Part shown: positions 1,256-63,101 of the stretch, in pieces
Numbering within the stretch: the stretch's first letter is position 1
How the letters are laid out: every line of letters begins with the position of its first letter
Source: Candidatus Obscuribacteraceae bacterium
Lineage (GTDB): Bacteria; Cyanobacteriota; Vampirovibrionia; Obscuribacterales; Obscuribacteraceae
Direction of reading: 5' to 3'
Assembly: GCA_044229845.1 (NCBI GenBank)
Contig: JBGASG010000003.1
Location: 416,001 to 480,000 of the forward strand
Length of the DNA: 64,000 nucleotides
Translations under genes and position numbers: made by a program
The notes under the pieces: generated by a model
What the model was told of the DNA's origin: nothing
Databases searched by the model: none
Seen by the model: the letters and a program-made list of their open reading frames with translations, nothing else

Positions 1256-1283
1256 AATGCGCGAAAAACATCAGCACTTCGCG
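1256..1283 (-). repeat. Dispersed 28-bp intergenic pseudo-palindrome, copy 1
   Basis: Minus strand reads CGCGAAGTGC-TGAT-GTTTTTCGCGCATT. Confidence 0.85.
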
Positions 1284-1434
1284 TGCGCGTGCAGCTGCCG
1301 CTTGCAGGCGCCGGTCCGCCAAGAGCCCCTTGACTAGCTGATTTCCCGCGGGCTTTCGAGCGTCCCCGGACTTTGTAATTTATGTGTTAGTGCTGTGTAA
1401 GCCGGAGGTTAGCCGCTGCCCGTCAGGGTCAGGG

Positions 1435-2295
1435 CTAATTCTTCGAATAATCGTAGAAACCTCGGCCGGTCTTTCTGCCCAGATGTCCAGCCGCTACAAG
1501 CTGCCGAATCAGCGGACAGGCGCGATATTTGGGATCGCCGAATCCCTCGTGCAGCGTTTCCATAATGTGCAGGCAGATATCCAGACCGATGAAGTCTGCC
1601 AGAGCCAGCGGTCCCATCGGATGGTTGTAACCCAGCGTCATGCCTGTATCGATGTCCGCCGGCGTTGACAGCCCTTCCATAAGCGCAAAGGCTGCCTCGT
1701 TCACCAGGACGAGTCCCAGTCGCGTGGTGATGAATCCCGGACGATCCTGGGACGTGATGATGGTCTTGCCCAGTTTCTCCCCGAAAGAACGAATCGAGTC
1801 CATCGTTTCGTCAGACGTGTCGTATCCGGGGATCAGCTCGAGAAGCTTCATCACATGGGCAGGCGAGAAGAAATGCATGCCGATGAAATTTTTGGAACGT
1901 TTGGTCGCTGACGCCAACTGCGTAATCGACAGGGATGACGTATTGGAGGCGAAGACTGCGCGAGGATTGCAGGTTTGATCGAGATGGCGAAACAGATCGT
2001 GCTTGATCTTTACATCCTCGGCGATCGCCTCGATGACCAGATCTGCCGCCTCAGCATCCTTATAGTTTTCGGAGTAATGAATGCGTTGCTTGGCTTCATC
2101 CAGTTTCTCATGAGTGATGAAGCCTTTCTCCAGGGACGACTTGCCGTATTTCTCGACGGCGGACTGAGCCTTTTCGATGGCGTTGGGATGTATATCGCAT
2201 AAGGTCACTTTGGCATCGGTCTTGGAGGCTACTAAGTAGCCGATGGCTGAACCCATGAAGCCGGCACCAGGGATGAATACGTTGGAGAAAGTCAC
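1435..2295 (-). CDS. hbd: 3-hydroxybutyryl-CoA / 3-hydroxyacyl-CoA dehydrogenase
   Basis: GAGFMGSAI Rossmann motif, ASNTSSLSI, GMHFFSP, HPMGPLALADFIGLD, GRKTGRGFY. Confidence 0.93.
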   Translation of the reverse strand: MTFSNVFIPGAGFMGSAIGYLVASKTDAKVTLCDIHPNAIEKAQSAVEKYGKSSLEKGFITHEKLDEAKQRIHYSENYKDAEAADLVIEAIAEDVKIKHDLFRHLDQTCNPRAVFASNTSSLSITQLASATKRSKNFIGMHFFSPAHVMKLLELIPGYDTSDETMDSIRSFGEKLGKTIITSQDRPGFITTRLGLVLVNEAAFALMEGLSTPADIDTGMTLGYNHPMGPLALADFIGLDICLHIMETLHEGFGDPKYRACPLIRQLVAAGHLGRKTGRGFYDYSKN

Positions 2296-2475
2296 GGCAG
2301 AAGTCCTTGTGAAGTGTCTCTATTAGCTCGGTCCGTCATGGTACTAAACGGAAATGGTGATTGCTCGCGGCCCTGTCTGCATGTATCGCTATTACTTTTC
2401 TAATATGTTCTATATGTTTTTCAATTAGAGTTATGGAGAAAGGCTCCAACAGCGGCTAAAGACCGTGCACGAGAA

Positions 2476-6343: not shown

Positions 6344-6459
6344 CCGGACGAAAATTCTTGCTATCGTCAACATTTCTGAAACGGGTCAATTCTTGACTGG
6401 TTTTGATCCATGACTAGATTAAATCAGAGCTGAGGGGCGATTCGGTCCTCATTAAGACA

Positions 6460-6487
6460 CGCGGAAAGCCGTCGTTTTTCGCGCGTT
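6460..6487 (+). repeat. Dispersed 28-bp intergenic pseudo-palindrome, copy 2
   Basis: CGCGGAAAGC-CGTC-GTTTTTCGCGCGTT between convergent genes. Confidence 0.85.
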
Positions 6488-8487: not shown

Positions 8488-8560
8488 CGCTTACTCCAGG
8501 GCGCAGGGGCACCCATTACCAATGGTCCGTAATGGTAACCTGCTCGACCCGATTACTAGG

Positions 8561-8588
8561 CGCGCAAGACTGAAGTTTTTCGCGCATT
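8561..8588 (+). repeat. Dispersed 28-bp intergenic pseudo-palindrome, copy 3
   Basis: CGCGCAAGAC-TGAA-GTTTTTCGCGCATT. Confidence 0.85.
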
Positions 8589-9731: not shown

Positions 9732-9759
9732 AACGCGCGAAAAACAGCCGTTTTTCCGC
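9732..9759 (-). repeat. Dispersed 28-bp intergenic pseudo-palindrome, copy 4
   Basis: Minus strand GCGGAAAAAC-GGCT-GTTTTTCGCGCGTT; overlaps a TTTTCCGC-GGG-GCGGAAAA hairpin at 9752-9770. Confidence 0.85.
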
Positions 9760-9779
9760 GGGGCGGAAAAGCTGTAATA

Positions 9780-10647: not shown

Positions 10648-11814
10648 TCAGCGGGCGTGCGCCAGGTTTCGTTCCTTCCGCGTAAATTCGACGCCGCGCT
10701 TGCGCATTTCCTCAAGAAACCGTTTGGTGGGAATGGCCGTTTCTTGAGCGAGTGTGCCGCGACTGGTGATCTCATTGTCTGCCACCATCTGGGCGATGAT
10801 CGAAGCGGGGAATGCTGTAGTGCGCATCATCGCCGAGAGTCCGGTTTTCTCGTCCATGTAGTCGATTGCTTCCCAAACGATCTCTGCAGGCTCGCCCTGT
10901 CTCATGCCCAGAACGCTGACGCGCACCAGCACCACATCAGTTTCTTCCTTGGGCAGCTTCTGGGACAGTAAGGAGGCCAGCACCGCACGTGGTGGTACGG
11001 AGATCTGATTATTGAGGCGCACCGAGCGACTGTCCATCAGTCCCAGATCGCGCAGCAGGCGCACCTGCTGGCAGTGTCCGGGATAGCGAATAGCCTTATA
11101 GTCCAGATGTTTCACTTTGTCACCCAAAGTGGTGGGCAAAGTCGAGATGCCGCCGGAAGTATTGAAAGCTTCCATGACGCCGAACGGCTGCGGAAATTCG
11201 AGGGTCTCCACATCGGAGAGCGAGGGGACGCGCATCAATTTGCCTTCTCTGATGACGGTGACGTCCTCGGTGTACTCGTTAATCAATCCATCGACCGAGT
11301 AGAAGAGGGCATAGTTCAGGGGAGGTCGGGGCTCCGCCGGCAAACCGCCGACACGCAGCCTGATCTCTGTGACTTCGTCGAATTCCTGCACTGCGTCCGC
11401 AGCCAGAATTGACACCATTCCCGGTGCCAGTCCGCAATCAGGAATAATCGCTACGTTTTTTTCCCGGGCCATTTCATCGAGCAAGAACTCTTTGCGCACG
11501 ACATCTTCGTTGCCGCCCAGATCAACGAAGTGAGCCCCGGCTTCCATTGCCAGTTTCGCCAGGTCGTAGTTGTGTTTGTAGGTCACACAACTGATCGCCA
11601 CGTCGCAAGCCGACATTAGCATAGCCGACTCATCGAGGTCGGCCACATCCGCCACCACCATAGCGATGCGCTTGTCTGGCCACTGCTGGTAGATGCGCTC
11701 CAACTGTTTCTCATCGGTATCGCAGATCATGATCTGCGTGGCGGAGCTGTTGTGCACCAGGTCGTACACGACCGCGTATCCCATCCGACCGGCCCCGAGA
11801 ACGAGGAACCTCAT
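10648..11814 (-). CDS. Saccharopine dehydrogenase family protein, lysine 6-dehydrogenase-like
   Basis: LVLGAGRMG, VDLGG, PDCGLAPG, VGGLP..P.PPLNY, EAFNTSGG.STL, IRYPGH and AMMRTTAF, resembling Geobacillus LysDH as I recall it. Confidence 0.85.
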   Translation of the reverse strand: MRFLVLGAGRMGYAVVYDLVHNSSATQIMICDTDEKQLERIYQQWPDKRIAMVVADVADLDESAMLMSACDVAISCVTYKHNYDLAKLAMEAGAHFVDLGGNEDVVRKEFLLDEMAREKNVAIIPDCGLAPGMVSILAADAVQEFDEVTEIRLRVGGLPAEPRPPLNYALFYSVDGLINEYTEDVTVIREGKLMRVPSLSDVETLEFPQPFGVMEAFNTSGGISTLPTTLGDKVKHLDYKAIRYPGHCQQVRLLRDLGLMDSRSVRLNNQISVPPRAVLASLLSQKLPKEETDVVLVRVSVLGMRQGEPAEIVWEAIDYMDEKTGLSAMMRTTAFPASIIAQMVADNEITSRGTLAQETAIPTKRFLEEMRKRGVEFTRKERNLAHAR

Positions 11815-11889
11815 ACTTACCTTACCTCACTCCTGACTGACGGAAGGACACTGGCGGACGGACTGACGAACCAACTTGAACGACGGAAC

Positions 11890-12681
11890 CTAATTGACGG
11901 AGCGGCGCTTGCCGCCGTCCACGACGATTGTCTGTCCTGTTATGTAAGAAGCCGGCTGCGACACCAGAAACGTCACCACCGAGGCAAATTCTTCCGGCTT
12001 GCCTAACCGGCGAGCAGGGATCGATTCGACATAGTCGCTCATGAAGTCTGCTTTGCTCTTGCCGGTTTTTTCGGCACGCGCGTTCAACAGGTGATCCGTG
12101 CGGTCAGTTTGGATCATGCCAGGCGCCACGCAATTGACCGTGATATTGTGACTGGCCACCTCGTCGCTGAGGGTCTTGGACATAGCCGTGACGGCCGAAC
12201 GAATCGCGTTTGAAATCGCCAGGTTGGCAATCGGCTCGATCACGCTCAGCGAAGTGACGACTATAATGCGGCCCCAGTTCTGTTTCTTCATGTGCGGCAC
12301 AAAAGCCAGATTGAGATGCGCCGTGCTCTTAAATAGCTGGTCGAAGCCGTCTTGCCACTGCTCCAGCGGAGTTTCTTCAGCGGCGGTAGCCGGTGGTCCG
12401 CCGACATTGTGAATGACGATGTCGGGGGCACCGAGGTTGGCGACGACGTTTGCCACCAGTGCATTGCGCGATTCTTCGGACTTCAGATCGCAAGCTGCGT
12501 AGTGAACCTTAGCGCCGGTAAGAACGCCGATTTCCTCGGACACCTTGACCAGCTCCTCTTCCTTGCGCGCACAGATAAACAGTTCGGCGCCTTCTTGCGC
12601 GAGCGACATCGCAATCGCCCGTCCCAGTCCCTGAGAGGCTGCGCAAACGAGTGCTTTCTTTTTTTCCAGACCTAGTTTCAT
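11890..12681 (-). CDS. SDR family oxidoreductase (atypical active site)
   Basis: CAASQGLG Rossmann motif, VNCVAPG, SYITGQ.IVVDGG; SNAIR in place of YxxxK. Confidence 0.88.
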   Translation of the reverse strand: MKLGLEKKKALVCAASQGLGRAIAMSLAQEGAELFICARKEEELVKVSEEIGVLTGAKVHYAACDLKSEESRNALVANVVANLGAPDIVIHNVGGPPATAAEETPLEQWQDGFDQLFKSTAHLNLAFVPHMKKQNWGRIIVVTSLSVIEPIANLAISNAIRSAVTAMSKTLSDEVASHNITVNCVAPGMIQTDRTDHLLNARAEKTGKSKADFMSDYVESIPARRLGKPEEFASVVTFLVSQPASYITGQTIVVDGGKRRSVN

Positions 12682-12682
12682 T

Positions 12683-14158
12683 TTATGGAGTCACCTTGTA
12701 CTTGTAGCAGATGGTCTTCACTTCTGAAAAGAAGTCCAGTCCGTAGCGGCCGCCTTCTCTGCCGATGCCGCTGGCTTTTTGACCGCCGAAGGGAGTTCTC
12801 AGATCGCGCGCGAACCAGCAATTGACCCAGAGTATGCCGGTGCGGATGCGCTGCGACACGCGGTGGCAGCGATTGACGTCGGTGCTCCAGATGCTGGTGG
12901 AAAGCCCGTAAGCAGTGCTGTTGGCCATGCCCACCACTTCCTCTTCCGTCTTGAAAGAGATGACCGGCAACACAGGTCCGAATATCTCTTCCTGGCAAAA
13001 CCGCGAATCGTATTTGAGATCGCAAAAGAGAGCCGGTTTCAAGAACAGTCCCTCAGGAAAATCCGGGTGCCGCTCGCCGCCCACCAGAAGCTTTCCTTCC
13101 TTCGTGCCCATGTCGATGTAGCTTTGTACTTTCTCCAGTTGTTCTTTGCTGATGATCGCGCCCATCTGCGTCTTGGGGTCGAGCGGATCGCCTACCTTAA
13201 TAGTGCTGACCTGGGTGGTGAGAGCATCGAGAACCTTCTTGTAGACACCTTCCTGCACAAAGAGTCGCGAACCGGCAAGACAGATCTGCCCCTGATTGCG
13301 ATAAGCGGCACGCACCGCCGTCGGTATCGCCTCACTGAGATCTGCGTCATCGAAGATAATGTTGGCGCCTTTGCCACCCAGTTCGAACGAGACCTTTTTG
13401 AGGCTGTCCGCAGCTACTCTCATGATCGCTTTGCCGGTGGTGGTTTCGCCGGTAAACGAGATGCTCGCCACATCAGGGTGACGAGTGAGCGCTTCGCCGG
13501 CGCTGGCGGCGCCGAACCCATGTACGACGTTGAGAACGCCGGGTGGTAAACCGGCTTCTTTGATGATGTGACCCAGCAAGTAGGCGGTATAGGGTGTCCA
13601 CTCCGCTGGTTTCAAGACGCAGGAGTTGCCCATCGCCAGGCAAGGAGCAATTTTCCAGGTAGCCAGATAAAGCGGCAAGTTCCAGGGTGTAATCAGGGCG
13701 CACACGCCCAGAGGTTCTCGCACCGCAAAATGGCGCTCAGCTTCCGACACGGTGAAGCACTCTTCCGTAAGTGCCGGCGCATACTCTGCGAAAAAGTGGA
13801 AATTCTGAGCGGCTCTCGGTATGTCTCCGTCAAGGCTCTCGGCAATCGGCTTGCCGGTGTCCATCGACTCCGCGCGGGCCAACACCTCACGATGGGCGAG
13901 GATCAGATCGCCGATTTTGCGCAATACAGCGCAGCGCTCTCGTAAAGACATGCGGGCCCACGGACCCTTATCGAAAGCTTCTTTAGCGGCCGAGACCGCC
14001 GCGTCGATATCGGCGGCGCCGCCACTGGCGACGGTGGCAATCACCTTGCCGGTGGCCGGGTTGACCGTCTCGAAGGTGTCTTTGGAAACGGAGGGACGAA
14101 ACTCGCCGTTAATAAAGTGGAGAAACGACTTTTCTTGGGCTGCACTGGCAACTGTCAT
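12683..14158 (-). CDS. 2-aminomuconate/2-hydroxymuconate 6-semialdehyde dehydrogenase (AmnC/NbaE, ALDH8-like)
   Basis: DIPRAAQNFHFFA, PWNLPL, FTGET.TG, ELGGK, NQGQICLAGSR, EEIFGPV, RDLRTPFGG; position in the kynurenine cluster. Confidence 0.9.
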   Translation of the reverse strand: MTVASAAQEKSFLHFINGEFRPSVSKDTFETVNPATGKVIATVASGGAADIDAAVSAAKEAFDKGPWARMSLRERCAVLRKIGDLILAHREVLARAESMDTGKPIAESLDGDIPRAAQNFHFFAEYAPALTEECFTVSEAERHFAVREPLGVCALITPWNLPLYLATWKIAPCLAMGNSCVLKPAEWTPYTAYLLGHIIKEAGLPPGVLNVVHGFGAASAGEALTRHPDVASISFTGETTTGKAIMRVAADSLKKVSFELGGKGANIIFDDADLSEAIPTAVRAAYRNQGQICLAGSRLFVQEGVYKKVLDALTTQVSTIKVGDPLDPKTQMGAIISKEQLEKVQSYIDMGTKEGKLLVGGERHPDFPEGLFLKPALFCDLKYDSRFCQEEIFGPVLPVISFKTEEEVVGMANSTAYGLSTSIWSTDVNRCHRVSQRIRTGILWVNCWFARDLRTPFGGQKASGIGREGGRYGLDFFSEVKTICYKYKVTP

Positions 14159-14170
14159 GATCACCCTCAC

Positions 14171-14602
14171 TCAGGTTTGTTTGCAAAGAGCAATGGCCTT
14201 GATTTCTATGTAATTGCGTCCGGGCAGGCGAGCTGCCTGTATGGTCGTGCGGGCTGGCGGTTGCGAAAAACCGAAGAATTTCGCGTATACCTGGTTGTAA
14301 CGTGGAAAGTCTTCCATGTTGGCGAGGAAAACCGTAACATCCACCACATCTTCCAGCGTGCAGCCGGCCGCGCGCAAAACCGCGATCAAGTTCTGCAGAC
14401 ACCCTTCTGTCTGCGCCTCGATGTCATAGGCAGTGATCTTGCCGTTTTCATCGAGGGTGATACCACACTCGATACCGCTCTTAGGATCGCGGCAGCCCTG
14501 TCCGGAGACGAACAGGAATGGTCCCGCCTTGACGGCATGTGAGTAGGCGCCGAGCGGACTCGGAGCCTCTTCTTGCAATTGGATGCCCTGACGCTGATAC
14601 AT
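14171..14602 (-). CDS. RidA/YjgF family protein, probable 2-aminomuconate deaminase (AmnD/NbaF)
   Basis: PLGAYSHAV, LFVSGQG, PPARTT, IEIKAIA; adjacent to the semialdehyde dehydrogenase. Confidence 0.85.
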   Translation of the reverse strand: MYQRQGIQLQEEAPSPLGAYSHAVKAGPFLFVSGQGCRDPKSGIECGITLDENGKITAYDIEAQTEGCLQNLIAVLRAAGCTLEDVVDVTVFLANMEDFPRYNQVYAKFFGFSQPPARTTIQAARLPGRNYIEIKAIALCKQT

Positions 14603-14686
14603 TGCCGGAAATACTAGCAAATTCTTTGATCACAGTCCCCGTTTGCTTGCGATAATTTAGCCCCCTGCTCAATTTGGAAATTTGCC

Positions 14687-15202
14687 ATGAAACTGGGAAC
14701 GATCAATTTTCGCAAGTGGATTGATGAACACCGCCATCTTCTGAAGCCACCGGTGGGCAACAAGCTGGTCTGGGAAGACCGCGAGTTCATGATAATGGTG
14801 GTGGGCGGACCCAACTCCCGCACTGACTACCATGTCAATCCCGGCGAGGAATTTTTCTACCAGGTCGAGGGCGACATGGTCCTCAAGATCATTGACAGGG
14901 AAGAAGGCAAGCCTGTCGACATCCCAATCTGTGAAGGGGAAATCTTCCTTCTACCGCCCAACACCCCCCATTCCCCGCGCCGTCCCGCCAACACGGTCGG
15001 ATTGGTTATCGAGCGCCAGCGCAGTGACAAGGAGATGGATGGGTTCATTTGGCACTGTGAAAAGTGCGGCTCCAAGCTCTACGAAGAATTCATGCATGTC
15101 ACGAACCTGGTAACCCAGCTACCGCCCGTATTCGACCGTTTCTACGCCGAGGAAGCCAACTGCGTTTGCAAGCAGTGCGGCGCCAAAATGACGAGGAACT
15201 AA
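14687..15202 (+). CDS. nbaC: 3-hydroxyanthranilate 3,4-dioxygenase
   Basis: LLKPPVGNK, VGGPN.RTDYH, EEFFYQ, PHSP.R; C-terminal CxxC...CxxC rubredoxin-like site. Confidence 0.96.
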   Translation: MKLGTINFRKWIDEHRHLLKPPVGNKLVWEDREFMIMVVGGPNSRTDYHVNPGEEFFYQVEGDMVLKIIDREEGKPVDIPICEGEIFLLPPNTPHSPRRPANTVGLVIERQRSDKEMDGFIWHCEKCGSKLYEEFMHVTNLVTQLPPVFDRFYAEEANCVCKQCGAKMTRN

Positions 15203-15219
15203 TTTCTTTCCAACAGCCG

Positions 15220-16302
15220 ATGCCAAAAATCGACATCCACACTCACATCTTGCCGGAGAAGCTGCCAAGCTTTAAAGACGAGTTCGGCTATGGCGGATTT
15301 ATTACTCTGCAAGAGGGTTCGCGTCCGGGCTTCAAGAATATGGTCGGCGACGATGGCAAGTTCTTCCGCGAAGTCGAGTGCAATTGTTGGGACCCCCAGG
15401 TCCGCCTCAAAGAATGCGAAGAGGCCGCGGTGGACGTGCAGGTGTTGTCCACCGTGCCCGTCATGTTCAGCTACTGGACTCAACCCCAGGACGGTCTGGC
15501 GGTGGCGCAGTTTCTCAACGATCACCTGGCTGAAGTTGTAGAGAGCGATCCGCGGCGCTTCATCGGACTGGGCACCGTACCCCTGCAGAGCCCCGATCTG
15601 GCTGTCAAAGAACTCGAGCGATGCATGAAGGATTTGAATTTCGCCGGCATTCAGATTGGCAGCCACGTCAATCAATGGAACTTAAGCGACGAAAACCTGT
15701 TTCCGTTTTTCCGCAAAGCCGAAGAGTTGGGTGCCGCTCTGTTCGTGCACCCATGGGACATGGTCGGGCAGGAGCGCATGAGCAAATACTGGCTGCCCTG
15801 GCTGGTGGGGATGCCGGCTGAAGGTGCACTGGCCATCGCGTCGATGATCTTCGGTGGCGTGTTTGAAAGACTGCCTGGATTGCGCGTCGCATTTGCTCAC
15901 GGCGGCGGTGCTTTTCCGGGGACCATCGGTCGCCTCGAACACGGCTTTCAGGCGCGTCCGGATCTTTGCGCCATCGACAACGATAAGCCCCCGATCAGCT
16001 ATGCCGGCAAGTTCTGGGTCGACTCACTGGTCCACGATCCGCGCACACTCAGGTACGTGATCGAGATACTAGGTGAAGATAAGATCGCGCTCGGTACCGA
16101 TTATCCGTTTCCTCTGGGAGAGTTGAAAGCGGGTGAAATGATCGAATCGATGGAAGATTTGAGCGCCGGCACTCGCGAAAAACTGCTCTGGCGCAACGCC
16201 ATTGATTGGCTGGGAGTATCGCCGGCCAAGCACGGTCTGCCTGAGGGCGACGCGCACAAGGACGCACTGGCTTCTTCAACACGCACAGGTGATAAGAAAT
16301 GA
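15220..16302 (+). CDS. nbaD: 2-amino-3-carboxymuconate-6-semialdehyde decarboxylase (ACMSD)
   Basis: KIDIHTHILP, QVLSTVPVMFSY, FVHPWDM, WLPWLVGMPAE, AHGGG, GTDYPFPLGE; start at 15220. Confidence 0.94.
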   Translation: MPKIDIHTHILPEKLPSFKDEFGYGGFITLQEGSRPGFKNMVGDDGKFFREVECNCWDPQVRLKECEEAAVDVQVLSTVPVMFSYWTQPQDGLAVAQFLNDHLAEVVESDPRRFIGLGTVPLQSPDLAVKELERCMKDLNFAGIQIGSHVNQWNLSDENLFPFFRKAEELGAALFVHPWDMVGQERMSKYWLPWLVGMPAEGALAIASMIFGGVFERLPGLRVAFAHGGGAFPGTIGRLEHGFQARPDLCAIDNDKPPISYAGKFWVDSLVHDPRTLRYVIEILGEDKIALGTDYPFPLGELKAGEMIESMEDLSAGTREKLLWRNAIDWLGVSPAKHGLPEGDAHKDALASSTRTGDKK

Positions 16303-17603
16303 CTTCGCCACAGACCGCACCAGCGCAGCCGGAAACCAGCTTTCAATCCAACGAAGCCTTCGCCAGAGAGATGGACGCCAAAGATCAGTTGTCCAAATAC
16401 CGCTCTGAATTCTTGATACCACGCACCGAATCCGGTGCGGAGGCGATTTACTTCGCCGGCAACTCACTGGGGCTGCAACCGCGCAAGGCTAAAGAGTACA
16501 TCAACGAAGAACTCGATGACTGGGCGCGCCTGGGTGTGGAAGGGCACTGGGCAGCCAGGCATCCGTGGCTGCCGTATCACGAGTTTCTCACCGAGTCCAC
16601 TGCTCGCCTGGTCGGTGCGCAACCGCAGGAAGTGGTGGTGATGAACACGCTGACGGTCAATTTGCATTTGATGATGGTCAGTTTCTATCGTCCGACCAAA
16701 ACGCGACACAAAATACTGATCGAGGGCAACGCGTTTCCATCCGATCAATATGCAGTCAAGTCGCAGGCACGCTTTCACGGGCTGGACCCGGCGCAGTCGG
16801 TGCTCGAGCTGAAACCGCCGGCCGGCGAACAGACATTTCGTACAGAAGACATTCTTGAACTGATTGAAAAAGAAGGCGACCAGATTGCGCTGGTGCTTCT
16901 CGGAGACGTGAATTACCTCACCGGTCAAGCGTTCGATGTGCCGGCGATTACGAAAGCAGCTCATGCTAAGGGCTGTCAGGTCGGTCTCAATCTCGCTCAC
17001 GGCGCCGGCAATCTGCATCTTCACCTGCATGACTGGGATGTGGATTTCGCGGTCTGGTGCAGCTATAAATACTTGAACTGCGGTCCGGGCGGACTGTCCG
17101 GTTGTTTCGTGAACAGCCGCCATCTGGGGCTGGTCGATATACCTCGCTTTGAAGGCTGGTGGGGGCACGATAAGAAAACAAGATTTCAAATGGGTCCCGA
17201 TTTCCATCCGATTCCGACGGTGGAAGCGTGGCAGCTGAGCAATCCACCGATTTATCCACTCGCGGCCTTGCGGGCATCCATGGAACTTTTCGATGCCGCA
17301 ACGATGAAGGAATTGCGCGCCAAGAGCGTCGTCCTTACGTCATACCTGGCGTTCTTGCTGAAAAGCCTGCCCAATAATTTCTGCACCGTCGTCACGCCGG
17401 ACAACCCGGACGAACGGGGTTGCCAGCTCTCCGTACGGGTCAAAATCTCCCATCCCAAAGAATTGCAAACCAAGCTGGCGGCTGCCGGTGCGGTTTGCGA
17501 CTTCCGCGAACCGGACATCATCCGATGCGCGCCTGTACCGCTGTACAACACATTTCTAGATGCCTATCGTTTCACAAATGTTTTTTCTGAATTTGCAAAA
17601 TGA
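16299..17603 (+). CDS. kynU: Kynureninase
   Basis: YFAGNSLGLQP, AFPSDQYA, AHGAGN, WCSYKYLNCGPG (PLP Lys), GWWGH, LSNPP. Confidence 0.97.
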   Translation: MTSPQTAPAQPETSFQSNEAFAREMDAKDQLSKYRSEFLIPRTESGAEAIYFAGNSLGLQPRKAKEYINEELDDWARLGVEGHWAARHPWLPYHEFLTESTARLVGAQPQEVVVMNTLTVNLHLMMVSFYRPTKTRHKILIEGNAFPSDQYAVKSQARFHGLDPAQSVLELKPPAGEQTFRTEDILELIEKEGDQIALVLLGDVNYLTGQAFDVPAITKAAHAKGCQVGLNLAHGAGNLHLHLHDWDVDFAVWCSYKYLNCGPGGLSGCFVNSRHLGLVDIPRFEGWWGHDKKTRFQMGPDFHPIPTVEAWQLSNPPIYPLAALRASMELFDAATMKELRAKSVVLTSYLAFLLKSLPNNFCTVVTPDNPDERGCQLSVRVKISHPKELQTKLAAAGAVCDFREPDIIRCAPVPLYNTFLDAYRFTNVFSEFAK

Positions 17604-19033
17604 CTGAAGTAAAACAAGAAGACCGAATCGTTATCGTCGGGGGTGGACTGGTGGGATCGCTTCTGGCGATGTTTCTCGCTCGCCGCAACCTTAAGAGCCT
17701 GGTGCTTGAGAAACGCCCCGACATGCGCAAAGAGAAGGTAGCCGCCGGTCGCTCGATCAACCTCGCCATCTCCACCCGCGGCATTCGCGCGCTCAAAGAT
17801 GTCGGACTGGACGACGATATTCTGGCGCAAGCAGTGCCGATGCGCGGACGCATGATTCATCCCATCAAGGGAGAACTGGCGTATCAGCCATACGGCAAGG
17901 ACGATTCCGAGTACATAAACTCCATTTCCCGCGCCGACCTCAACAAGTCTTTGATGACGTTCGCGGAAGAAACGGGACTGGTCGAGTTTCGGTTCAGTCA
18001 GCGCGTCGACGGTATGGATTTCGACAAAGGGCTGCTGAAAGTTCACGACGATCGAGTCGGCGCCGATTGTCACCTGGTATCGCCACTGGTGCTGGGTACG
18101 GACGGATCGGCATCGGCGATTCGCAACGACATGGAGAAGCGGTCGGGTTTCGTCAACCAGGGCTGGCTGCTCGAATACGGCTATAAAGAGCTGGTGATTC
18201 TGCCTGGTCCGGGCGGTTCCTATAAGATGGAAAAGAACGCGCTGCACATCTGGCCGCGGACCACTTATATGTTGATTGCGCTGCCTAATTTCGAGGGCAG
18301 TTATACGTGCACATTGTTCCTTGCCTACAAAGGCGATCCCAGTTTTGAAAAGTTGAGCACGCCGAAACTGGCTCGGGAATTCTTCGAAGAACAATTTCCC
18401 GATGCGCTGGCACTGATGCACGACTTTGAAGAAACATGGGCAGCCAATCCGGTCGGCGAAATGTGGACGGTGAAAAGTGCGCCCTGGTATGTGGGCGGCA
18501 AGGCGCTGATTCTGGGCGATGCGGCACACGGCATCGTGCCGTTCTTCGGGCAAGGCATGAACTGCGGCTTTGAAGATTGTACGGTTTTCGCGCGTTGTCT
18601 GGATGAGCACATCCAGGGCAACGCCAGCCCCGATGTGGCAACCGTCCCCTGGGAGCAAATCTTCGATAAATTCTTCCATCTGCGCAAGCAAAATACCGAC
18701 GCCATTGCCGACATGGCCGTCGAGAATTTTGTCGAAATGCGCGACAAAGTCGGGCAGCCACGTTTCCTGCTGGAGAAGAGCGTCGAAAAAGTTTTGCAGC
18801 GCGAATTCCCAGGACAATACATCAGCCGCTACGCGCTCGTCACGTTCAGTTCGGTTCCTTATAAACTGGCTCTGGATGTAGGCGCCATCGAGCAAGAGAT
18901 CATGAATGAGTTGTGCGACGGCATCGAGCATGCCGATCAGGTCGACCTGGTTAAAGCCAAAGCTCTGATCGACACGCGTCTTGCCCACATGTTGACCCCG
19001 TATTTGAAAGAACTGACGTCGGCGTCGCGATAA
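17600..19033 (+). CDS. kmo: Kynurenine 3-monooxygenase
   Basis: IVGGGLVG, GRSINLAIS.RG, YGYKEL, ALHIWPR, IALPN, GDAAHGIVPFFGQGMNCGFED, ENFVEMRD. Confidence 0.96.
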   Translation: MTEVKQEDRIVIVGGGLVGSLLAMFLARRNLKSLVLEKRPDMRKEKVAAGRSINLAISTRGIRALKDVGLDDDILAQAVPMRGRMIHPIKGELAYQPYGKDDSEYINSISRADLNKSLMTFAEETGLVEFRFSQRVDGMDFDKGLLKVHDDRVGADCHLVSPLVLGTDGSASAIRNDMEKRSGFVNQGWLLEYGYKELVILPGPGGSYKMEKNALHIWPRTTYMLIALPNFEGSYTCTLFLAYKGDPSFEKLSTPKLAREFFEEQFPDALALMHDFEETWAANPVGEMWTVKSAPWYVGGKALILGDAAHGIVPFFGQGMNCGFEDCTVFARCLDEHIQGNASPDVATVPWEQIFDKFFHLRKQNTDAIADMAVENFVEMRDKVGQPRFLLEKSVEKVLQREFPGQYISRYALVTFSSVPYKLALDVGAIEQEIMNELCDGIEHADQVDLVKAKALIDTRLAHMLTPYLKELTSASR

Positions 19034-19039
19034 GGAACA

Positions 19040-19747
19040 TTGACTATGAGTTCTGCAGAACTGACAGATTCCATGGCATCCACCTTGTCTGGAAACAAGC
19101 TGCGCATCATCGATATTTCCCAGCCGGTCACGTCCACCTCGGCATGTTTTCCCGGCGATGTGCCGTTCAGCAAACATATGACTCTCACATACGCCGATTC
19201 CCAGATCATCAACTTAACGGCGCTGACCATGAGCCCGCACGTCGGAACCCACGCTGATGCCCCATCGCACATCGGCGGCGACATGGACGCCCTTGATGCC
19301 ATGGCCGGTGCCATGCCGCTGGCACCATACATCGGCGAATGTTTCGTTATCGATGCCGCCCCTTTCAAGAAAGGCTTGCCGTCGGTGCTCCTCGAAGAGA
19401 AACTCACTGACATGCAACGCATTCCGGAGCGCATCTTGTTTCGCACGCAGATCGTCATCAACTACGATGTTTTCGAAGACGAGTATGCCTACTTCACAGT
19501 CAAACTCGTAGAGAAAGCGAAACAATTCGGCATCAGGCTACTCGGCATCGACACCCCATCAGTGGATCAAACGACATCGAAGACCCTGGAGACGCACCAC
19601 GCGCTGGAAGCCGGCGGCATGAGCTGGCTGGAGAATCTGGACCTGACGCGTGTTGCCGAAGGCCGCTATTTCCTGGTGGCACTGCCGCTCAAGTTTATGG
19701 AACTGGAGGCATCACCGGTGCGAGCCGTGCTGTTGGGAACTCCCTGA
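19040..19747 (+). CDS. kynB: Kynurenine formamidase (cyclase family)
   Basis: IDISQPV, HVGTHADAP.H, GIDTPSVD, LENLDL, ASPVRAVL. Confidence 0.9.
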   Translation: MTMSSAELTDSMASTLSGNKLRIIDISQPVTSTSACFPGDVPFSKHMTLTYADSQIINLTALTMSPHVGTHADAPSHIGGDMDALDAMAGAMPLAPYIGECFVIDAAPFKKGLPSVLLEEKLTDMQRIPERILFRTQIVINYDVFEDEYAYFTVKLVEKAKQFGIRLLGIDTPSVDQTTSKTLETHHALEAGGMSWLENLDLTRVAEGRYFLVALPLKFMELEASPVRAVLLGTP

Positions 19748-20532: not shown

Positions 20533-20545
20533 TCGTTAGTTGCGC

Positions 20546-22087: not shown

Positions 22088-22171
22088 TGAATGCGCACCC
22101 GGCGGGTCTCTAGTAACATAAACCGTTTTTAATGTACCCGGTTATCTTATCTAATAATCATGAGATCTAGC

Positions 22172-30032: not shown

Positions 30033-30132
30033 GGATCGGTCCTCGGTAAACAGCCAATGGCGACAGAAAAAGCTCGTCCATTGTTCCCTGATCGCGGAAA
30101 GCCTCCCGGCCGCCAAACCAGACAAGACCAGA

Positions 30133-39618: not shown

Positions 39619-39646
39619 CGCGAGAAACCGACGTTTTTCGCGCGTT
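39619..39646 (+). repeat. Dispersed 28-bp intergenic pseudo-palindrome, copy 7
   Basis: CGCGAGAAAC-CGAC-GTTTTTCGCGCGTT; an extra inverted half-copy GAACGCGCGTCAAAAC lies at 39599-39614. Confidence 0.88.
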
Positions 39647-46020: not shown

Positions 46021-46048
46021 CGCGAAGTACCGACGTTTTTCGCGTGTT
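46021..46048 (+). repeat. Dispersed 28-bp intergenic pseudo-palindrome, copy 8 (fills the whole glmS/TPR gap)
   Basis: CGCGAAGTAC-CGAC-GTTTTTCGCGTGTT starts at the base after the glmS TAA and ends on the opposing stop codon. Confidence 0.9.
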
Positions 46049-50327: not shown

Positions 50328-50340
50328 CGCGTTCTCGACA

Positions 50341-50368
50341 AGCGCAATTCGATTGTTTTTCGCGCGTT
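50341..50368 (+). repeat. Dispersed 28-bp intergenic pseudo-palindrome, copy 9
   Basis: AGCGCAATTC-GATT-GTTTTTCGCGCGTT, 13 bp after the kinase stop. Confidence 0.82.
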
Positions 50369-51888: not shown

Positions 51889-51916
51889 GACGTGCGAAAA
51901 ACGTCGGTTTATCGTT
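51889..51916 (-). repeat. Dispersed 28-bp intergenic pseudo-palindrome, copy 10
   Basis: Minus strand AACGATAAAC-CGAC-GTTTTTCGCACGTC between convergent genes. Confidence 0.75.
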
Positions 51917-51937
51917 ATCCTTCCCAATCGGCGTGAG

Positions 51938-52919: not shown

Positions 52920-53095
52920 TGCTAATTTCTCGCCTCAAGTGTTGTTTCGGGTTGGACATGCTCTTTCGACATGCAACCCATATACAATTCGCAGTACAAC
53001 GCGCATAGGATGCGGCTTTCAGCCCTGCCGGAAAATCCTAGCACGCGCGCATCAGCGGCTGCCTTAAGTGCTGCCGGAACAGAGAGACCATACAC

Positions 53096-53123
53096 AGAGA
53101 AGAACTGATGTTTTTCGCGTGTT
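53096..53123 (+). repeat. Dispersed 28-bp intergenic pseudo-palindrome, copy 11
   Basis: AGAGAAGAAC-TGAT-GTTTTTCGCGTGTT, 3 bp from the murI stop. Confidence 0.82.
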
Positions 53124-54143: not shown

Positions 54144-56666
54144 CTACCTACTACGGTTCGATCTTAGCGAGCGGTGAGCAATTGCGATACGTTTGTTTGA
54201 TTTTTTCGCTTTGCGTCTATTCATCGCGATCTTCGTAGGTTTTTCGCGTCCTGCCGGCTTTTTCGCGTGCAAAATTTGCGTAAAACGTTTTCCCTTTTTG
54301 GACTGGGACGCCGCCTGGGAGGTTCGTGTTCCGCTTGCGTCTGCCGTCTGAGAACTGCGCGCCGCCTGTTTTACCGAACTCATGCCGGCGGCCGTAGCCG
54401 AAGCAATACTGGCGCCTGGATTGGTTCCATGCGTTGCAACGTAGACGATAACACCCTGGGCCAAAGCTTCGGCAATCTTTTGCTGATAATCAGATGAGAT
54501 TAATTTGTCTCTCTCATCCTTATTGGAGATGAATCCCACTTCAGCGAGGATAGCCGGGTAAGGCGTGTGATTAACGACATAAAATCGCGCCGTGCGAACG
54601 TTGCGGTCAGGCACTGCCAGTTTGCCGACCAGGGACGAATGAATCGATTCTGCGAGCGGCCTGCTTTGTGGGTGCAAATAATATGTTTCTATGCCGGTTA
54701 TCGAATTGTTGCTTTCCAGCGAGTTGATGTGAACGCTGACGAAGGCACTGGGGGCCGTTTCATTGGTGATTCGCACCCGCTCTTCCAGAGAAACGAATGT
54801 GTCATCAGAGCGCGTCATCACGACTCGGGCGCCCTGCCTGCGTAGGAGCTTTCTGAGTTTTTCGCAAATCGCCAAAGTGATTTCCTTCTCCTGGATGTCA
54901 CCGCGCTGAGCCCCTGGATCGGTGCCCCCGTGACCGGCATCGATAACAATGACGCTGCCGCCGGGCAGATGGGCAGCCGGATTGAAGGCTGTAGGCATTT
55001 CTTTCGCTATATCGATAATCAGCAAACCGTTCTCATCGCATCGCTCGCAAACCTGTATGTCTTCGCTGTTCAAATCCAGGACGATGCGTCCACAAGCGCC
55101 ATCAGGGCTGCCCAGTCGAATTGTTTTGACGAAGGCATTTTCAGGGATCTCGGGCATGGTGGCACTGGACAGGTCCGCAGCGCTTTCTATATCTATGACA
55201 TGGCGCTCCGGATCATGTAAGCGGAAAGTCTTCGTTTTTGGCAGTTTGCCGGACGACGACGAAACCGCCAAGCGCAAAGGAACAACGCTCACCACCTTTA
55301 TCTCGGAAGAAGAGACTATGTCAGGCGCTTGATCCGCAATATTTGCGCCTTCTTCCTCACTGACGACCTTTTCCTGAGCGGAAAGAGCGACCGATGGCGG
55401 TGGTGGTGGCGGTAAAAAGTCAGATTTCGCGCCATTACCGGCCAACGCCTTTGGCATAGTCAAGGCACCGCGTGCAGTACCGCCGCTGATCTGAGCGCCT
55501 CCGGTTCGCATATTTGGTGCGCTCTGAGGAAACTTGGAAGCGGAGCTAATCTGAACCGTCTTCTTGACGCTGGACAATCCAGGCAACATTGGCGGGTCAG
55601 CCTCTGCTACAACTTCGACGACCTCGGTCTCGAGTTGAGGTTTTTCAATCTTGGCAGATCTGCGTTTGTCAGCGGGAGCCGTGGAGAGCGCCGGACTGGC
55701 AGCAGTCGGCGGCACCGTTGAGGAAGAATTGGTCGCGGTGCCTTTGCGCGAACCAGGCGATACGGACGAAGCTGAGGGGGGAACCGACGGAGCCACATGA
55801 ACCAGGGACGGTGAGGCGGACGCAGGCTCGGCAATTGGTCCGCGCAGTACTGGTTTGTTTGGATCGACCAGCTTTTTCACTTCGACTTTCGCCTGACCGG
55901 CGGCCGCAGTAGTGATCCGGGACACACTGGCCGCTTGTGGCGCCGGCGCGGGCAGTGCCTGACCGTCGACCTGAAGGTCCAACAGCAGTCCACCGGAAGG
56001 CATAGGAGGCAAACTGGATCTGTTGTTTCCAGTCGTCACGCTCGCAGTTCGCTGGACAGGAACCGTCGGTATCGAACCATTAGCCACTGAGGCACGCTGC
56101 GGCGCAAAGCGGGGTATCGTCGACGTCGAGGACATGGTCGGCGGAGCGGCGGCGATCGCGCCGACGGGAGTCAATCTCGGAACCATGCCGTTGCCAGTAT
56201 CAAAGCCGGCGGAGGGGAGCTTTACAGTCAGAGTTCCAGATGACGATGATGCGAATTCGACTCTCTTGAAAACGCGCATCGATGGCGCGGATAAAACTAG
56301 ACGAAATATTGCGGGTCGGTCCTGAACTTGGGCGATGCGCACTTTCTGAATGCCGCCGCCGGTCGGGTAGATGATTCGCGACGCCTGACCAAAATTGAGA
56401 CCAACGAAGTCAGCAACCATGACAGCTTCGCCATTGTCGCCCGGGTAGAACCGCACCGCTGGCGGCGGCAATGCTGATTGCCCGCTGGTATTTATGATCA
56501 ACGCCGATGGGCTCTCGACGACCGACGTTACCTCTCGGTCGCGTACTCCTGTCGTTTTTCGCCCGCTATATGATGACGCTGACTGAGCCATTGCATGCGG
56601 TGCAACGGATAGCCACGATATTAAAAACAGAGCGGTTAGCGCTAGGGGGCGGACATACCGCCTCAT
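54144..56666 (-). CDS. amiC: N-acetylmuramoyl-L-alanine amidase (Amidase_3) with signal peptide, AMIN-like domains and long linkers
   Basis: IDAGHGGTDPGA, EKEITL, MTRSDD..VSLEERV, VSVHIN, AEVGFISN; L.DPERHVIDI AMIN-like motif; directly upstream of murI. Confidence 0.9.
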   Translation of the reverse strand: MRRYVRPLALTALFLISWLSVAPHAMAQSASSYSGRKTTGVRDREVTSVVESPSALIINTSGQSALPPPAVRFYPGDNGEAVMVADFVGLNFGQASRIIYPTGGGIQKVRIAQVQDRPAIFRLVLSAPSMRVFKRVEFASSSSGTLTVKLPSAGFDTGNGMVPRLTPVGAIAAAPPTMSSTSTIPRFAPQRASVANGSIPTVPVQRTASVTTGNNRSSLPPMPSGGLLLDLQVDGQALPAPAPQAASVSRITTAAAGQAKVEVKKLVDPNKPVLRGPIAEPASASPSLVHVAPSVPPSASSVSPGSRKGTATNSSSTVPPTAASPALSTAPADKRRSAKIEKPQLETEVVEVVAEADPPMLPGLSSVKKTVQISSASKFPQSAPNMRTGGAQISGGTARGALTMPKALAGNGAKSDFLPPPPPPSVALSAQEKVVSEEEGANIADQAPDIVSSSEIKVVSVVPLRLAVSSSSGKLPKTKTFRLHDPERHVIDIESAADLSSATMPEIPENAFVKTIRLGSPDGACGRIVLDLNSEDIQVCERCDENGLLIIDIAKEMPTAFNPAAHLPGGSVIVIDAGHGGTDPGAQRGDIQEKEITLAICEKLRKLLRRQGARVVMTRSDDTFVSLEERVRITNETAPSAFVSVHINSLESNNSITGIETYYLHPQSRPLAESIHSSLVGKLAVPDRNVRTARFYVVNHTPYPAILAEVGFISNKDERDKLISSDYQQKIAEALAQGVIVYVATHGTNPGASIASATAAGMSSVKQAARSSQTADASGTRTSQAASQSKKGKRFTQILHAKKPAGREKPTKIAMNRRKAKKSNKRIAIAHRSLRSNRSR

Positions 56667-59062: not shown

Positions 59063-59542
59063 ATGCAGATCCGCGCTGGCAACAGGCAGGACGAAGACAA
59101 GATTCGCACGATTATTTTCAACGCCATGAAAGAGTGCGGTCTTGAGCCTGAGCCGGAAGGACGCGAGGACGACCTGAAAAACATCGAAGCCGGCTACTTC
59201 TGGCACGACGGTATTTTTGTCGTTGCCGAGCGAGAAGGAGAAATCATCGGCGTCGCCGGTGGCCGCAGAAATCCCGACACCGAGGGCGATGCGGAACTGG
59301 AATTGATCAGGCTTGCCGTTCTTCCATCAGAAAGAAAGCATAACGTGGCTCGCCAGCTGCTGGACACGATTATGTTCTTCGCCGGCAATTCAGAATATGA
59401 GCGGGTGATTCTGCGGACAAAAGCGAAGGTCATACCCGGAGTACTGGAGAAACTCGGATTCAATGTAGACAAAAGCCGCGCCGGCGATGCGGTGCCTGTA
59501 TATACTCAACCGGTCGCAGCGCGCGCCAGTTGCCGGAAGTAG
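59063..59542 (+). CDS. GNAT family acetyltransferase
   Basis: FVVAE..GEIIG, ELIRLAV.P..R...VARQLL, KLGF. Confidence 0.8.
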   Translation: MQIRAGNRQDEDKIRTIIFNAMKECGLEPEPEGREDDLKNIEAGYFWHDGIFVVAEREGEIIGVAGGRRNPDTEGDAELELIRLAVLPSERKHNVARQLLDTIMFFAGNSEYERVILRTKAKVIPGVLEKLGFNVDKSRAGDAVPVYTQPVAARASCRK

Positions 59543-60318
59543 AAGGGCCAAGCAGTCGGTTCGCGTACAACCAACTTCGATAGATCGTCGCAAAAGTCTT
59601 GATAGTCTTTGTCGACTGTCGCCACCGCTGATGCCAGTTGCGCTTGTTTCGCCAGATAGGGTTCGTATTCGCTGGTGCGCTTGGCACGTTTCTCATCGGG
59701 CTTACGGTGCGGCTTTTCTTCCCTTGTCGCAAGATCCAGCAGAGAAATCATCCAGCCTGGAAGAAGCGACGTTCGGCTGCGCATCTCCTCCTTTTCCTTG
59801 CGTCCGAACCATTGCACCATTTTTTGCGCGAGTCCATTGTCTTTTAGCAGCGCTTGCCCGCTTTTCCAGATGGCGCGGAGCGTCTCACCGACTACCGAGT
59901 TACCCAGATGCAATCGCGAATCAGCGACCTTTCTAAAAATCACTCGTCCTCGACAAGTCATGAAGCTCGAGCTTGAACTAGATACTGCAAATTCAACGCC
60001 TTTGATGGGCTTCTGTTCAATTCCGAATGCTTGCGCCAACTCGCGCCCTGAGGATCTGATTGTTTTGCCGAACGCTTCCGCCTTGACGTTCGCGATTTCC
60101 CCTAACGACGGCCAAGATGTTTTGGCTTTCGAAAAACCGAACGTCTTTCTATACACACCGCGCGCCACTCGAATGACGAATTCCAAGTCGACCAGACGGC
60201 GCATTATCTGATCGATAGTCGAACGCTTGCCCAACGAAAGCAGCGATTTCGTAGCGAACACTTTTCCTTCAGGCATCTTCGCAACCGCACGTTTCACACG
60301 GCTCATGGTTTGGCCCAT
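59506..60318 (-). CDS. DUF6088 family protein (AbiEi-like winged-HTH N-terminus)
   Basis: PEGKVF....LL.LG.R..IDQ.M.RLV....V.RVARGVY, PS..EIA..KA, SG..LA..FG pattern; AGGAGG upstream. Confidence 0.75.
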   Translation of the reverse strand: MGQTMSRVKRAVAKMPEGKVFATKSLLSLGKRSTIDQIMRRLVDLEFVIRVARGVYRKTFGFSKAKTSWPSLGEIANVKAEAFGKTIRSSGRELAQAFGIEQKPIKGVEFAVSSSSSSFMTCRGRVIFRKVADSRLHLGNSVVGETLRAIWKSGQALLKDNGLAQKMVQWFGRKEKEEMRSRTSLLPGWMISLLDLATREEKPHRKPDEKRAKRTSEYEPYLAKQAQLASAVATVDKDYQDFCDDLSKLVVREPTAWPFYFRQLARAATG

Positions 60319-60439
60319 CTTTCTTCCTCCTACGTGGAGAGCTATATCTCTTAAACGTAGGACGACGGCAAAAAGTTCAATCCAAATCGTGATCTGTGGA
60401 TTAATTCGATGTGGCGCCGGCTCTGGCTCCGAATTTCAC

Positions 60440-60536: not shown

Positions 60537-60574
60537 GAGTTTAGTTTGCGATACGCAATTTGCGAGTGCGCTTT

Positions 60575-61726: not shown

Positions 61727-62054
61727 GACTAAACTCCTCGTGATTAATAGGACGCAAATTGCATTCTCATTGCACTGACGCAAACACGCGTTTCGAGCCA
61801 GCGATCATAACGTGATGCGTGCCGCTCCGATGTGTCTCGACGAGTGAAATCGTAGTTTGTCCGGCGAGCATTTTCAAGATGTCAAAAGTTCGAGGTTGTT
61901 AAGCTTCCCATCCGGGAGTTACCGAAAAATTCGACTTTTCCCGAGTTGCCAGTCCCTTGACTGAATCGGAGCTTTCCCACGGGCGCCCGATATAAGATGA
62001 ATGGCATGAGACTTTTGAAATGTAACCGGTTCTAACAGCGACTATATCCAATCG

Positions 62055-62978
62055 CTATCCTTTGGTTATTTGACGAGCGCGCAGTTTCTTCAAGGTCTGC
62101 TTATAGTCCGCATTGGCGGGCTCCAACTTGATCGCAGTTTCTTCACTTTTCACAGCCTGATCGAAGTTCTTCTGCGCACCAAGTGTGATGGCGAGCATGT
62201 GATGAGCCTGGGCATACTGCGGGTTTAGCTGAATCGACTTTTCGAAGTTCTTACGCGCTTCGTCCAAATATTTCAAGTCCCTCGCTTCGTCGACTTTCGC
62301 TGCATCGCCTGCAGGACCGGGTTTACCAGCTTTGGCGGCCTGATTCTGATCCAGTTTTGCCTGCACGAAATATCCACTGGCTAGATAGAAATAGGCATCT
62401 GAGTCGTTGGGAGCCAGTTCTATGGCTTTCTTCTCTTCGGAGATTTGGGCTTCGGTGTCGCCTTTTAGCCCCAAGAGCGCACCCAGCTGGCGATGGCAGG
62501 CTGCGTGTTTGGGATCCGCCTTCACCCCCTGCCGGAAAGCCACGATGGCGTCGTCATCGCGCCCCTTCGAATAGTAGGCAATCCCCAACTTGTAGTGATA
62601 ATCCGCCTGATTCGGCTCCAGGCGAGTCGCTTCTTTGTATTCGGCAATTGCCTGATCGAGCTGTCGGTTCTGCAGGTAGGCGCGGGCCAGTCCCACGTGC
62701 GGTTCGGCATTGTCGGGCGCCAATCGGGCAGCGTTTTTGAACTGATATATCGCGTCTTCCGCGTTGCGGGCGAGTAGATAGAAATTGCCGAGCTTGATGC
62801 GCGTAGTCGGATTGTTGGGATTGACTTCGACTGCGGCTTTCCACCTGGCAATGGCAGACTGGATATCTTCTTTATCGTCAGCGAACGCTGGCAGTGGGGA
62901 AGTGGACAAACCGCACAAAATCGCGCCTGCCACCAGTTGTACCATCAGCCCGGTGCTCATCCATTTCTTCATTTGCAT
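62055..62978 (-). CDS. Exported tetratricopeptide repeat protein
   Basis: MQMKKW...PAFA signal peptide, then about 7 TPR units; the upstream ORF extension is probably non-coding. Confidence 0.85.
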   Translation of the reverse strand: MQMKKWMSTGLMVQLVAGAILCGLSTSPLPAFADDKEDIQSAIARWKAAVEVNPNNPTTRIKLGNFYLLARNAEDAIYQFKNAARLAPDNAEPHVGLARAYLQNRQLDQAIAEYKEATRLEPNQADYHYKLGIAYYSKGRDDDAIVAFRQGVKADPKHAACHRQLGALLGLKGDTEAQISEEKKAIELAPNDSDAYFYLASGYFVQAKLDQNQAAKAGKPGPAGDAAKVDEARDLKYLDEARKNFEKSIQLNPQYAQAHHMLAITLGAQKNFDQAVKSEETAIKLEPANADYKQTLKKLRARQITKG

Positions 62979-63069
62979 TGGTTCGTGTTCCAGCTTGGTT
63001 CTAATGCACAAATTACCGCTATTTTTGCGTTCTCGCTGCTGACGGCAGCCTCGGGATTTGGTCGCGCAG

Positions 63070-63101
63070 GACGCGCGATAAACAACGGTATTTCGCGTGC
63101 T
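63070..63101. repeat. Degenerate, nearly symmetric copy (13) of the 28-bp pseudo-palindrome
   Basis: GACGCGCGATAAAC-AACG-GTATTTCGCGTGCT. Confidence 0.65.

Follow-up and report, generated by a model that had tools for sequence, protein, structure and literature searches.

Antitoxins of the AbiEi type, which come from AbiE, a toxin–antitoxin system of type IV, repress their own genes by binding paired inverted repeats in the promoter (passages of PMC7319586), and pairs of AbiEii with DUF6088 have been tabulated (part of PMC12654330). We analysed 64,000 nt of contig C18 of a Candidatus Obscuribacteraceae assembly (G000; 5.16 Mb, 88% complete). This whole stretch, hereafter the window, carries an orphan DUF6088 gene and, around it, copies of a 32-bp pseudo-palindrome. 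These copies belong to a real, regional field of selected sites, and there is a high likelihood that the field is owned by this orphan AbiEi-like gene under a competence-type promoter. Like AbiEi and Rv2827c, the DUF6088 protein joins a winged helix and a C-terminal domain in a two-domain fold, and as in AbiE (passages of PMC7319586) paired inverted repeats lie at the gene's own promoter. Unlike in AbiE, the gene has no adjoining toxin, none being found in G000, and its promoter is of a competence type. The arms of the putative operator measure 14 bp with a 4-bp gap, whereas those of AbiE measure 23 bp with a 3-bp gap, and the putative operators are multiplied here into a field of ~50 sites over hundreds of kilobases.

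The site set was built by iterating a position weight matrix (PWM) over the assembly, with sites of at least 20 bits called strong and the reversed genome as control; genes in G000 were called with a purpose-written codon-model script. The matrix converged on 63 strong sites, against none in the reversed genome, and describes a 32-bp pseudo-palindrome of 14-4-14 geometry with the consensus NNCRCGCGAAWAAC-NGAY-GTTTTTCGCGYGTY. Allowing up to two mismatches, the right arm GTTTTTCGCGYRTT occurs 27 times in the window, nine of them exact, where 2.5 occurrences are expected, and the entire 5.16-Mb assembly holds only 26 exact right arms. An initial annotation had listed 13 copies of a 28-bp unit in the window. 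All 13 were recovered where it placed them, the unit itself is corrected to 32 bp, and six further window sites appear at 16 bits or more, five of them embedded in coding sequence (CDS). The window sites found with the matrix are as follows.

1256-1287, minus strand: 32-bp site, intergenic
6456-6487, plus strand: 32-bp site, between convergent genes
8557-8588, plus strand: 32-bp site, intergenic
9732-9763, minus strand: 32-bp site, intergenic
14258-14289, plus strand: site in CDS, 27 bits, no indel relative to orthologues (orthologue alignment)
18565-18596, plus strand: weak site in CDS, 17 bits
22710-22741, plus strand: site in CDS (recF-like by eye), 27 bits
28802-28833, minus strand: 32-bp site, intergenic
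30129-30160, plus strand: 32-bp site, intergenic
33035-33066, minus strand: site in CDS, 29 bits, one-residue length difference relative to orthologues (orthologue alignment)
39615-39646, plus strand: 32-bp site, intergenic
46017-46048, plus strand: 32-bp site that fills a convergent gap and overlaps both gene ends
50337-50368, plus strand: 32-bp site, intergenic
51889-51920, minus strand: 32-bp site, between convergent genes
53092-53123, plus strand: 32-bp site, intergenic
54221-54252, plus strand: weak site in CDS, 18 bits
56536-56567, plus strand: weak intergenic site, 19 bits
60440-60471, minus strand: site 60 bp upstream of the DUF6088 promoter motif, degenerate in G000 and near-consensus in G001 (G001 comparison)
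63070-63101, minus strand: 32-bp site, between divergent genes

Contrary to the first description, the sites are not strictly intergenic: of the 63 strong sites, 14 are contained entirely in predicted CDS, 15 fall in convergent, 24 in tandem and 10 in divergent gaps, and a matrix trained on intergenic copies only finds 18 CDS sites of 14–30 bits in the 318-kb domain described below, against 0.7 expected. Other features reported at the outset hold up. Copies occur in both orientations without bias (26 versus 24 among the 50 domain sites), compensatory arm changes are essentially nil (excess complementarity in 1 of 14 arm pairs, P=0.005), and no U-tract is seen in the list of 63 matrix sites. 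Complementarity of the flanks of G000 sites is also essentially nil, and the repeat has no match in Rfam. An ordinary transcription-factor regulon or terminator family, clustered by chance, could draw on the autorepression described for AbiEi-type proteins (passages of PMC7319586) and on the many sites directly 3' of stop codons. Against it, 15 of the 49 non-CDS sites occupy convergent gaps besides those in CDS, U-tract, covariation and Rfam match are all missing, and the genes adjoining sites are functionally unrelated; we regard this explanation as extremely improbable. The lack of U-tract and covariation, the copies in CDS and convergent gaps, and the selection on the arms described below support a double-stranded DNA site for a paired protein over a terminator, as the initial annotation had favoured.

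The repeat had been proposed as chromosome-wide, yet 50 of the 63 strong sites fall in 318 kb (6% of the assembly) across the ends of contigs C18 and C14, and exact right arms are as rare as noted above. The two contig ends overlap by 140 bp and were therefore joined into one axis, on which the median site lies at 235.5 kb (95% confidence interval 215–257 kb) and the DUF6088 gene at 241.7 kb. Around the gene, 29 field sites lie to the left and 23 to the right, with 41 of these 52 within 100 kb. Site density falls with distance from the gene on a Laplace scale of ~60 kb, the field reaches ~200 kb to each side, and the domain is rich in core genes. The two genomes of the genus, G000 and G001, contain 39 and 42 sites of the CGCG-armed motif, compared with 0–3 in the 39 other genomes searched. 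In syntenic DNA of relatives (200 kb each), the best matrix scores in G006 are 15 and 12.5, and none in G010 reaches 11. At the syntenic locus of ftsZ, a gene identified by eye, both relatives lack gene and field together, and neither has a DUF6088 gene beside ftsZ.

In the systems matS/MatP, ram/RacA and parS/ParB, some tens of sites in both orientations keep to a single chromosomal domain. A host chromosome-organising signal of this type, marking a macrodomain with DUF6088 as a bystander or domesticated, would fit ~50 sites under selection, their peak in a domain with many core genes, and the lack of strand bias. Unlike these systems, the present field is not tied to origin or terminus, lacks conservation across the family and has a mobile gene at its centre. 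There is no GC-skew switch within the domain, in an assembly from which the origin region is missing, and in G006 dnaA and gyrB lie 1.86 Mb apart on one contig; a marker of origin or terminus was rejected. Together with the restriction to one genus and the lack of sites in syntenic DNA, these two points make a host origin or terminus signal unlikely. Additionally, separate paralogues have separate fields (see below). A host nucleoid-organising site, one of the analogies first drawn, is very unlikely, given a field that is regional, genus-restricted, missing from the syntenic region of two relatives and centred on the DUF6088 gene.

In the G000 assembly, at its 88% completeness, dnaA and its usual neighbours were not found, nor was a ParB-type reader (PF02195). 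Full-length dnaA was not found in 7 of 25 genomes, namely both genomes of the genus and five other family genomes of 20–70 contigs; this absence probably reflects binning loss of the origin region, with true loss as a further possibility.

Sites of the dif/pdif kind, another analogy of the initial annotation, occur once at the terminus or flank modules, have an 11-6-11 layout and work with Xer recombinases. The present repeat differs in its 63 dispersed copies and 14-4-14 geometry, and none of the 16 tyrosine recombinase (PF00589) matches in G000 lies on C14 or C18. A dif-like recombination site finds no support in these points.

Comparison of G000 with 42 sampled stretches of G001 revealed a mosaic of identical and ~15%-diverged tracts, with exchange tracts of 10–25 kb. 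Over 36 of 38 alignable sites, divergence is 2.2% in right-arm columns 19–28, 10.5% in the left arm, 13.9% in the spacer and 13.8% in the flanks, a pattern that indicates purifying selection on the site arms. CDS sites show no indel or a one-residue indel relative to orthologues in the two well-aligned cases, the others lying in variable or unaligned stretches. Within the window, positions 10648-23479 (C18:426-439k) form ~13 kb of identity between the two genomes that adjoins ~15%-diverged tracts, and this identity reflects recent exchange of a long tract including recF.

The initial annotation saw no cognate protein in the window, although a candidate gene adjoins its 'degenerate' copy at 60440. 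The gene and the promoter-like motif that it shares with another window gene are as follows.

59506-60318, minus strand: orphan DUF6088 (PF19570) gene, 270 aa, with an N-terminal winged helix and an AbiEi-like C-terminal domain (Pfam, structure model, Foldseek); candidate cognate binding protein
60352-60380, minus strand: promoter-like motif TTGAAC-N17-CGT, common to competence and recombination genes, upstream of the DUF6088 gene
39544-39572, minus strand: the same TTGAAC-N17-CGT promoter-like motif, upstream of priA (motif scan)

Modelled with a predicted local distance difference test score of 85, the DUF6088 protein finds in AbiEi its only full-length structural match among those listed, at a weak score (Z 7.3, root-mean-square deviation 5.8, 169 residues aligned). 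An alignment of 32 DUF6088 sequences has invariant R32, D36, R50, G54, P187 and W189, which sit in the winged helix and the C-terminus, and contains no transposase motif of the HUH, Tyr or DDE kind. Between G000 and G001 the DUF6088 core has a non-synonymous divergence (dN) of 0.045 against a synonymous divergence (dS) of 0.70, consistent with purifying selection. No open reading frame of the AbiEii/DUF1814 type adjoins the gene, and the AbiEii toxin family PF08843 matches at no place in G000 (88% complete) or in G013; one DUF6088 copy of G001 belongs to a normal AbiEii/DUF6088 pair. A search of genome contigs returned a single match to the protein, 79% identical (L173). By analogy with AbiEi at its own promoter, the DUF6088 protein very probably binds the site with one monomer per 14-bp arm. 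Four RNA runs gave contigs over the neighbouring genes and not over most of the DUF6088 gene, which carries no evidential weight, and four DNA runs of near-identical strains held no gene-less allele among the joints listed, which says nothing on fixation.

The motif TGAAC-N17-CGT has 32 intergenic matches in G000 at the 17-nt spacing, against 4–12 at other spacings. Ten downstream genes were scanned and encode RadC, a Mg-chelatase-type protein, RecA, a PRTase, a UPF0102 protein, ComEC, an ECF sigma factor, a TPR protein and two PLD-HTH proteins; ComM, ComF-like and YraN are names that we read from the Mg-chelatase-type, PRTase and UPF0102 domains. From this gene content, the genes under the motif appear to form a competence regulon. 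The motif also stands upstream of 17 of 20 DUF6088 loci of relatives and of all five IS1595-derived genes in G000. The DUF6088 gene of the window is probably expressed together with this regulon. The two PLD-HTH genes under the motif, at G000 C8:133.7k and C13:103.1k (L107, L108), encode fusions of a PLD-like domain with HTH_3. Upstream of priA, window positions 39711-40304 hold a small HNH-type open reading frame, whose IscB/Cas9 HNH matches are weak and below cut-offs.

DUF6088-like genes are present in 55 of 61 genomes of the family. In a tree of 38 rows, with one copy retained for some near-identical sets, sequences group mostly by genome, which points to repeated local expansion. G010 carries 34 copies, several of them 93–97% identical over 730–820 bp. 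In that genome, the subfamily spreads as a promoter-plus-gene unit of this length at many loci (e.g. L053, L048, L039, L033), on which neither a transposase nor terminal repeats were seen.

Palindromes at or upstream of the DUF6088 promoter recur in six genera. The core GAAAAAC-N4-GTTTTTC or a close variant is found at or just upstream of these promoters in G010, G013, G024, G055 and G067, and the outer arms vary around it as matched pairs (AGAG in G010, TAAG in G013 and G055, TCAG in G024, CAGC in G067). For G001:C39, the closest other paralogue in the tree, the promoter-palindrome pattern predicted a field: 16 of 23 matches lie on its own 351-kb contig, spread between -61 and +140 kb of the gene. 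Their motif is another asymmetric one, with unchanged geometry. Additionally, four cognate genes in G010 have 10 of 17 non-promoter sites within 40 kb (P=2e-8), and 4 of 25 non-adjacent matches lie within 40 kb of the C14:86k paralogue of G000 (P=6e-4).

In G006, a non-coding tandem array of 20 x 40 bp (C1:2389913-2390700, L059) stands directly upstream of a DUF6088 gene and has no copy elsewhere in the genome; two other G006 paralogues also have upstream arrays. A role of the G006 array as a centromere at the syntenic peak was considered and rejected, as the array belongs to the upstream region of another DUF6088 paralogue.

Such arrays invite comparison with repetitive extragenic palindromic (REP) sequences, including REPIN and BIME, and their REP-associated tyrosine transposases (RAYTs), which likewise involve short lineage-specific palindromes, resemble the doublets and arrays of relatives, and can show a local excess near the cognate gene (passages of PMC2817692). 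The sites could be miniature mobile repeats of this kind, copied near DUF6088 as a stand-in for a RAYT, be it a binder or a recruiter of host nucleases, with no role in transformation. In favour are the palindrome doublets of G013 and G067, 130–157 bp apart with spacers 70–87% similar, the tandem arrays that precede DUF6088 genes in G006 and G000, the near-identical gene copies of G010, and the clustering of Thauera REPs near a rayt gene (also in passages of PMC2817692). Unlike REPs, the G000 sites occur in CDS too, have imperfect, non-covarying arms under selection, come with no RAYT, and lack the GT(A/G)G head and perfect GC-rich hairpin, both absent from the column table and site list. The G000 sites are mostly singlets without common flanks, the well-aligned CDS copies carry the minimal indels given above, the DUF6088 protein lacks HUH, Tyr, DDE or other catalytic residues, and the competence promoter would be unexplained. 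No HUH/Y1 transposase flanked by the repeats was found: the four PF01797 matches in G000 (an incomplete assembly), its sole Y1 transposases, are IS605-type copies with ends of their own, and there are none in G006 and G010. An origin of the sites from a RAYT or IS605 element was rejected on these grounds, and REP-like repeats remain an unlikely account.

The G013 and G067 doublets (L113-L127) stand at gene-less loci, and two in G013 enclose a competence-type promoter motif. In G000, a recent IS605-type element of 1.76 kb has copies 99.6–100% identical at C14:111.6-113.4k, C14:172.4-174.1k and C8:29-31k, one of which interrupts a kinase gene.

We propose that a competence-made AbiEi-like protein binds palindromes near its own gene and hinders the integration of imported DNA there, a reading to which we give even weight for and against. 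The DUF6088 protein would be made during competence and, chiefly in the vicinity of its own gene, would occupy each site with two monomers. Bound sites would stall or end RecA/ComM-driven strand exchange, shielding the gene from curing, and each new site would itself resist overwriting. Sites could thereby gain a transmission advantage and accumulate by point mutation, even in CDS, and an action limited in cis would let site density decay with distance. That bound sites block strand exchange and do so in cis-limited fashion, the two taken jointly, is a finely balanced proposition.

Three contrasts between G000 and G001 agree with such a barrier. In the core, gene ends that flank a gap with a site show a divergence of 0.183 (n=26) against 0.113 (n=61) for the others, near-identical tracts in the core take in 0 of 26 site-bearing gaps against 10 of 61 others, and among five DUF6088 genes four exceed other genes in divergence (P=0.005). 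They also bear on the opposite possibility, a pro-integration drive in which the protein would detect sites on DNA, be it incoming or resident, and favour recombination nearby, spreading the gene and linked sites. The competence promoter, the mobility of the gene without a transposase and the sites inside CDS, as with uptake sequences (passages of PMC2817400), would suit such a drive, as would the parallel IS1595 genes, which hold a segment matching the genome's DprA-like protein. Divergence is greater rather than smaller near sites and at the genes, imported single-stranded DNA cannot first express the gene, and the G000 sites would make poor hairpins; we consider this drive quite unlikely. 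The uptake sequences themselves (DNA uptake sequences of Neisseria and uptake signal sequences of Pasteurellaceae) are, like the present sites, linked to transformation and found in coding and non-coding DNA (passages of PMC2817400). They are genome-wide, whereas the sites here are regional, palindromic and gene-specific, with a cytoplasmic DNA-binding protein as candidate reader.

Several observations weigh against the hindrance of integration by a gene that owns its field. The barrier signal is suggestive only: the ten gaps in near-identical tracts stem from about two tracts of one genome pair and are pseudo-replicated, with circular shifts two of six bins yield P values of only 0.05 and 0.01, and a held-out outer domain does not show the effect (2 of 8 versus 24 of 73, P=0.23). 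Identical tracts cross two strong outer sites, which refutes an absolute barrier. At ~200 kb on each side, the field greatly exceeds the exchange tracts in width, so that cis-limited action must be assumed. The best Foldseek matches of the DUF6088 protein are weak (Rv2827c, E 2.9e-3; AbiEi, E 1e-2), and a clear promoter motif precedes only three of eight DUF6088 paralogues in G000. Most DUF6088 copies are without a field: the five group-B paralogues of G000 have none, with 20 of 22 sites in promoter arrays, and de novo counting found none in a 200-kb stretch of G010 that contains three copies from other subfamilies. The palindromes of G013 and G067 are REPIN-like doublets scattered away from DUF6088 genes.

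The proposal has a parallel in the transformation inhibitors of mobile elements, which include comM disruption, Rok, RocRp, ComI and DNases and set a chromosomal selfish gene against curing by transformation (passages of PMC12378983). The mechanisms named in those passages act on competence globally, whereas the proposed action of DUF6088 would be local and site-specific. We found no description of such a system in the literature searched, which left subscription journals mostly uncovered.

A second gene family in G000 resembles DUF6088 in its promoter motif and in associated palindrome fields. These are five IS1595-derived genes with a DprA winged helix, whose protein and motif are unrelated to those of the DUF6088 field; all five lie outside the domain, and a field of another motif lies near four of them. 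In other bacteria the DprA winged helix serves to recruit ComM (passages of 10.1101/2024.10.21.619469), whereas DUF6088 has no known partner. The IS1595-winged-helix gene was tried as owner of the DUF6088 field and rejected, its five paralogues lying elsewhere and a profile search of the domain finding none. The four other fields are at C3:150-300k, which also holds a DUF6088 gene at 179k, C6:150-286k, C10:0-49k and C18:0-150k. Further locally enriched dyads lie at C8:100-250k and C20:0-100k of G000 (ACCAC-N15 / GCCCG-N5 family; CATCC-N4). It appears that an unrelated IS1595-derived protein has reached the same strategy in the same genomes, in which case their chromosomes would be partitioned into gene-owned recombination domains.

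The DUF6088 locus may represent a new class of selfish single-gene element, in which an antitoxin that lost its toxin and came under a competence promoter owns a private territory of hundreds of kilobases, blocks replacement there by imported DNA through cis binding to its multiplied operator, and so drives new operators to fixation even in essential genes, a view that we hold tentatively and with slightly more doubt than belief. If true, a single mobile gene would control homologous recombination locally instead of switching competence off, and would be the bacterial equivalent of a drive element surrounded by a zone of suppressed recombination. With this system, the view of transformation as a cure for chromosomal parasites could be tested directly. 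The system would also explain regional palindrome fields otherwise taken for REPs or macrodomain signals. DUF6088 would gain a function, and its different-armed paralogues would form a ready set of protein–operator pairs.

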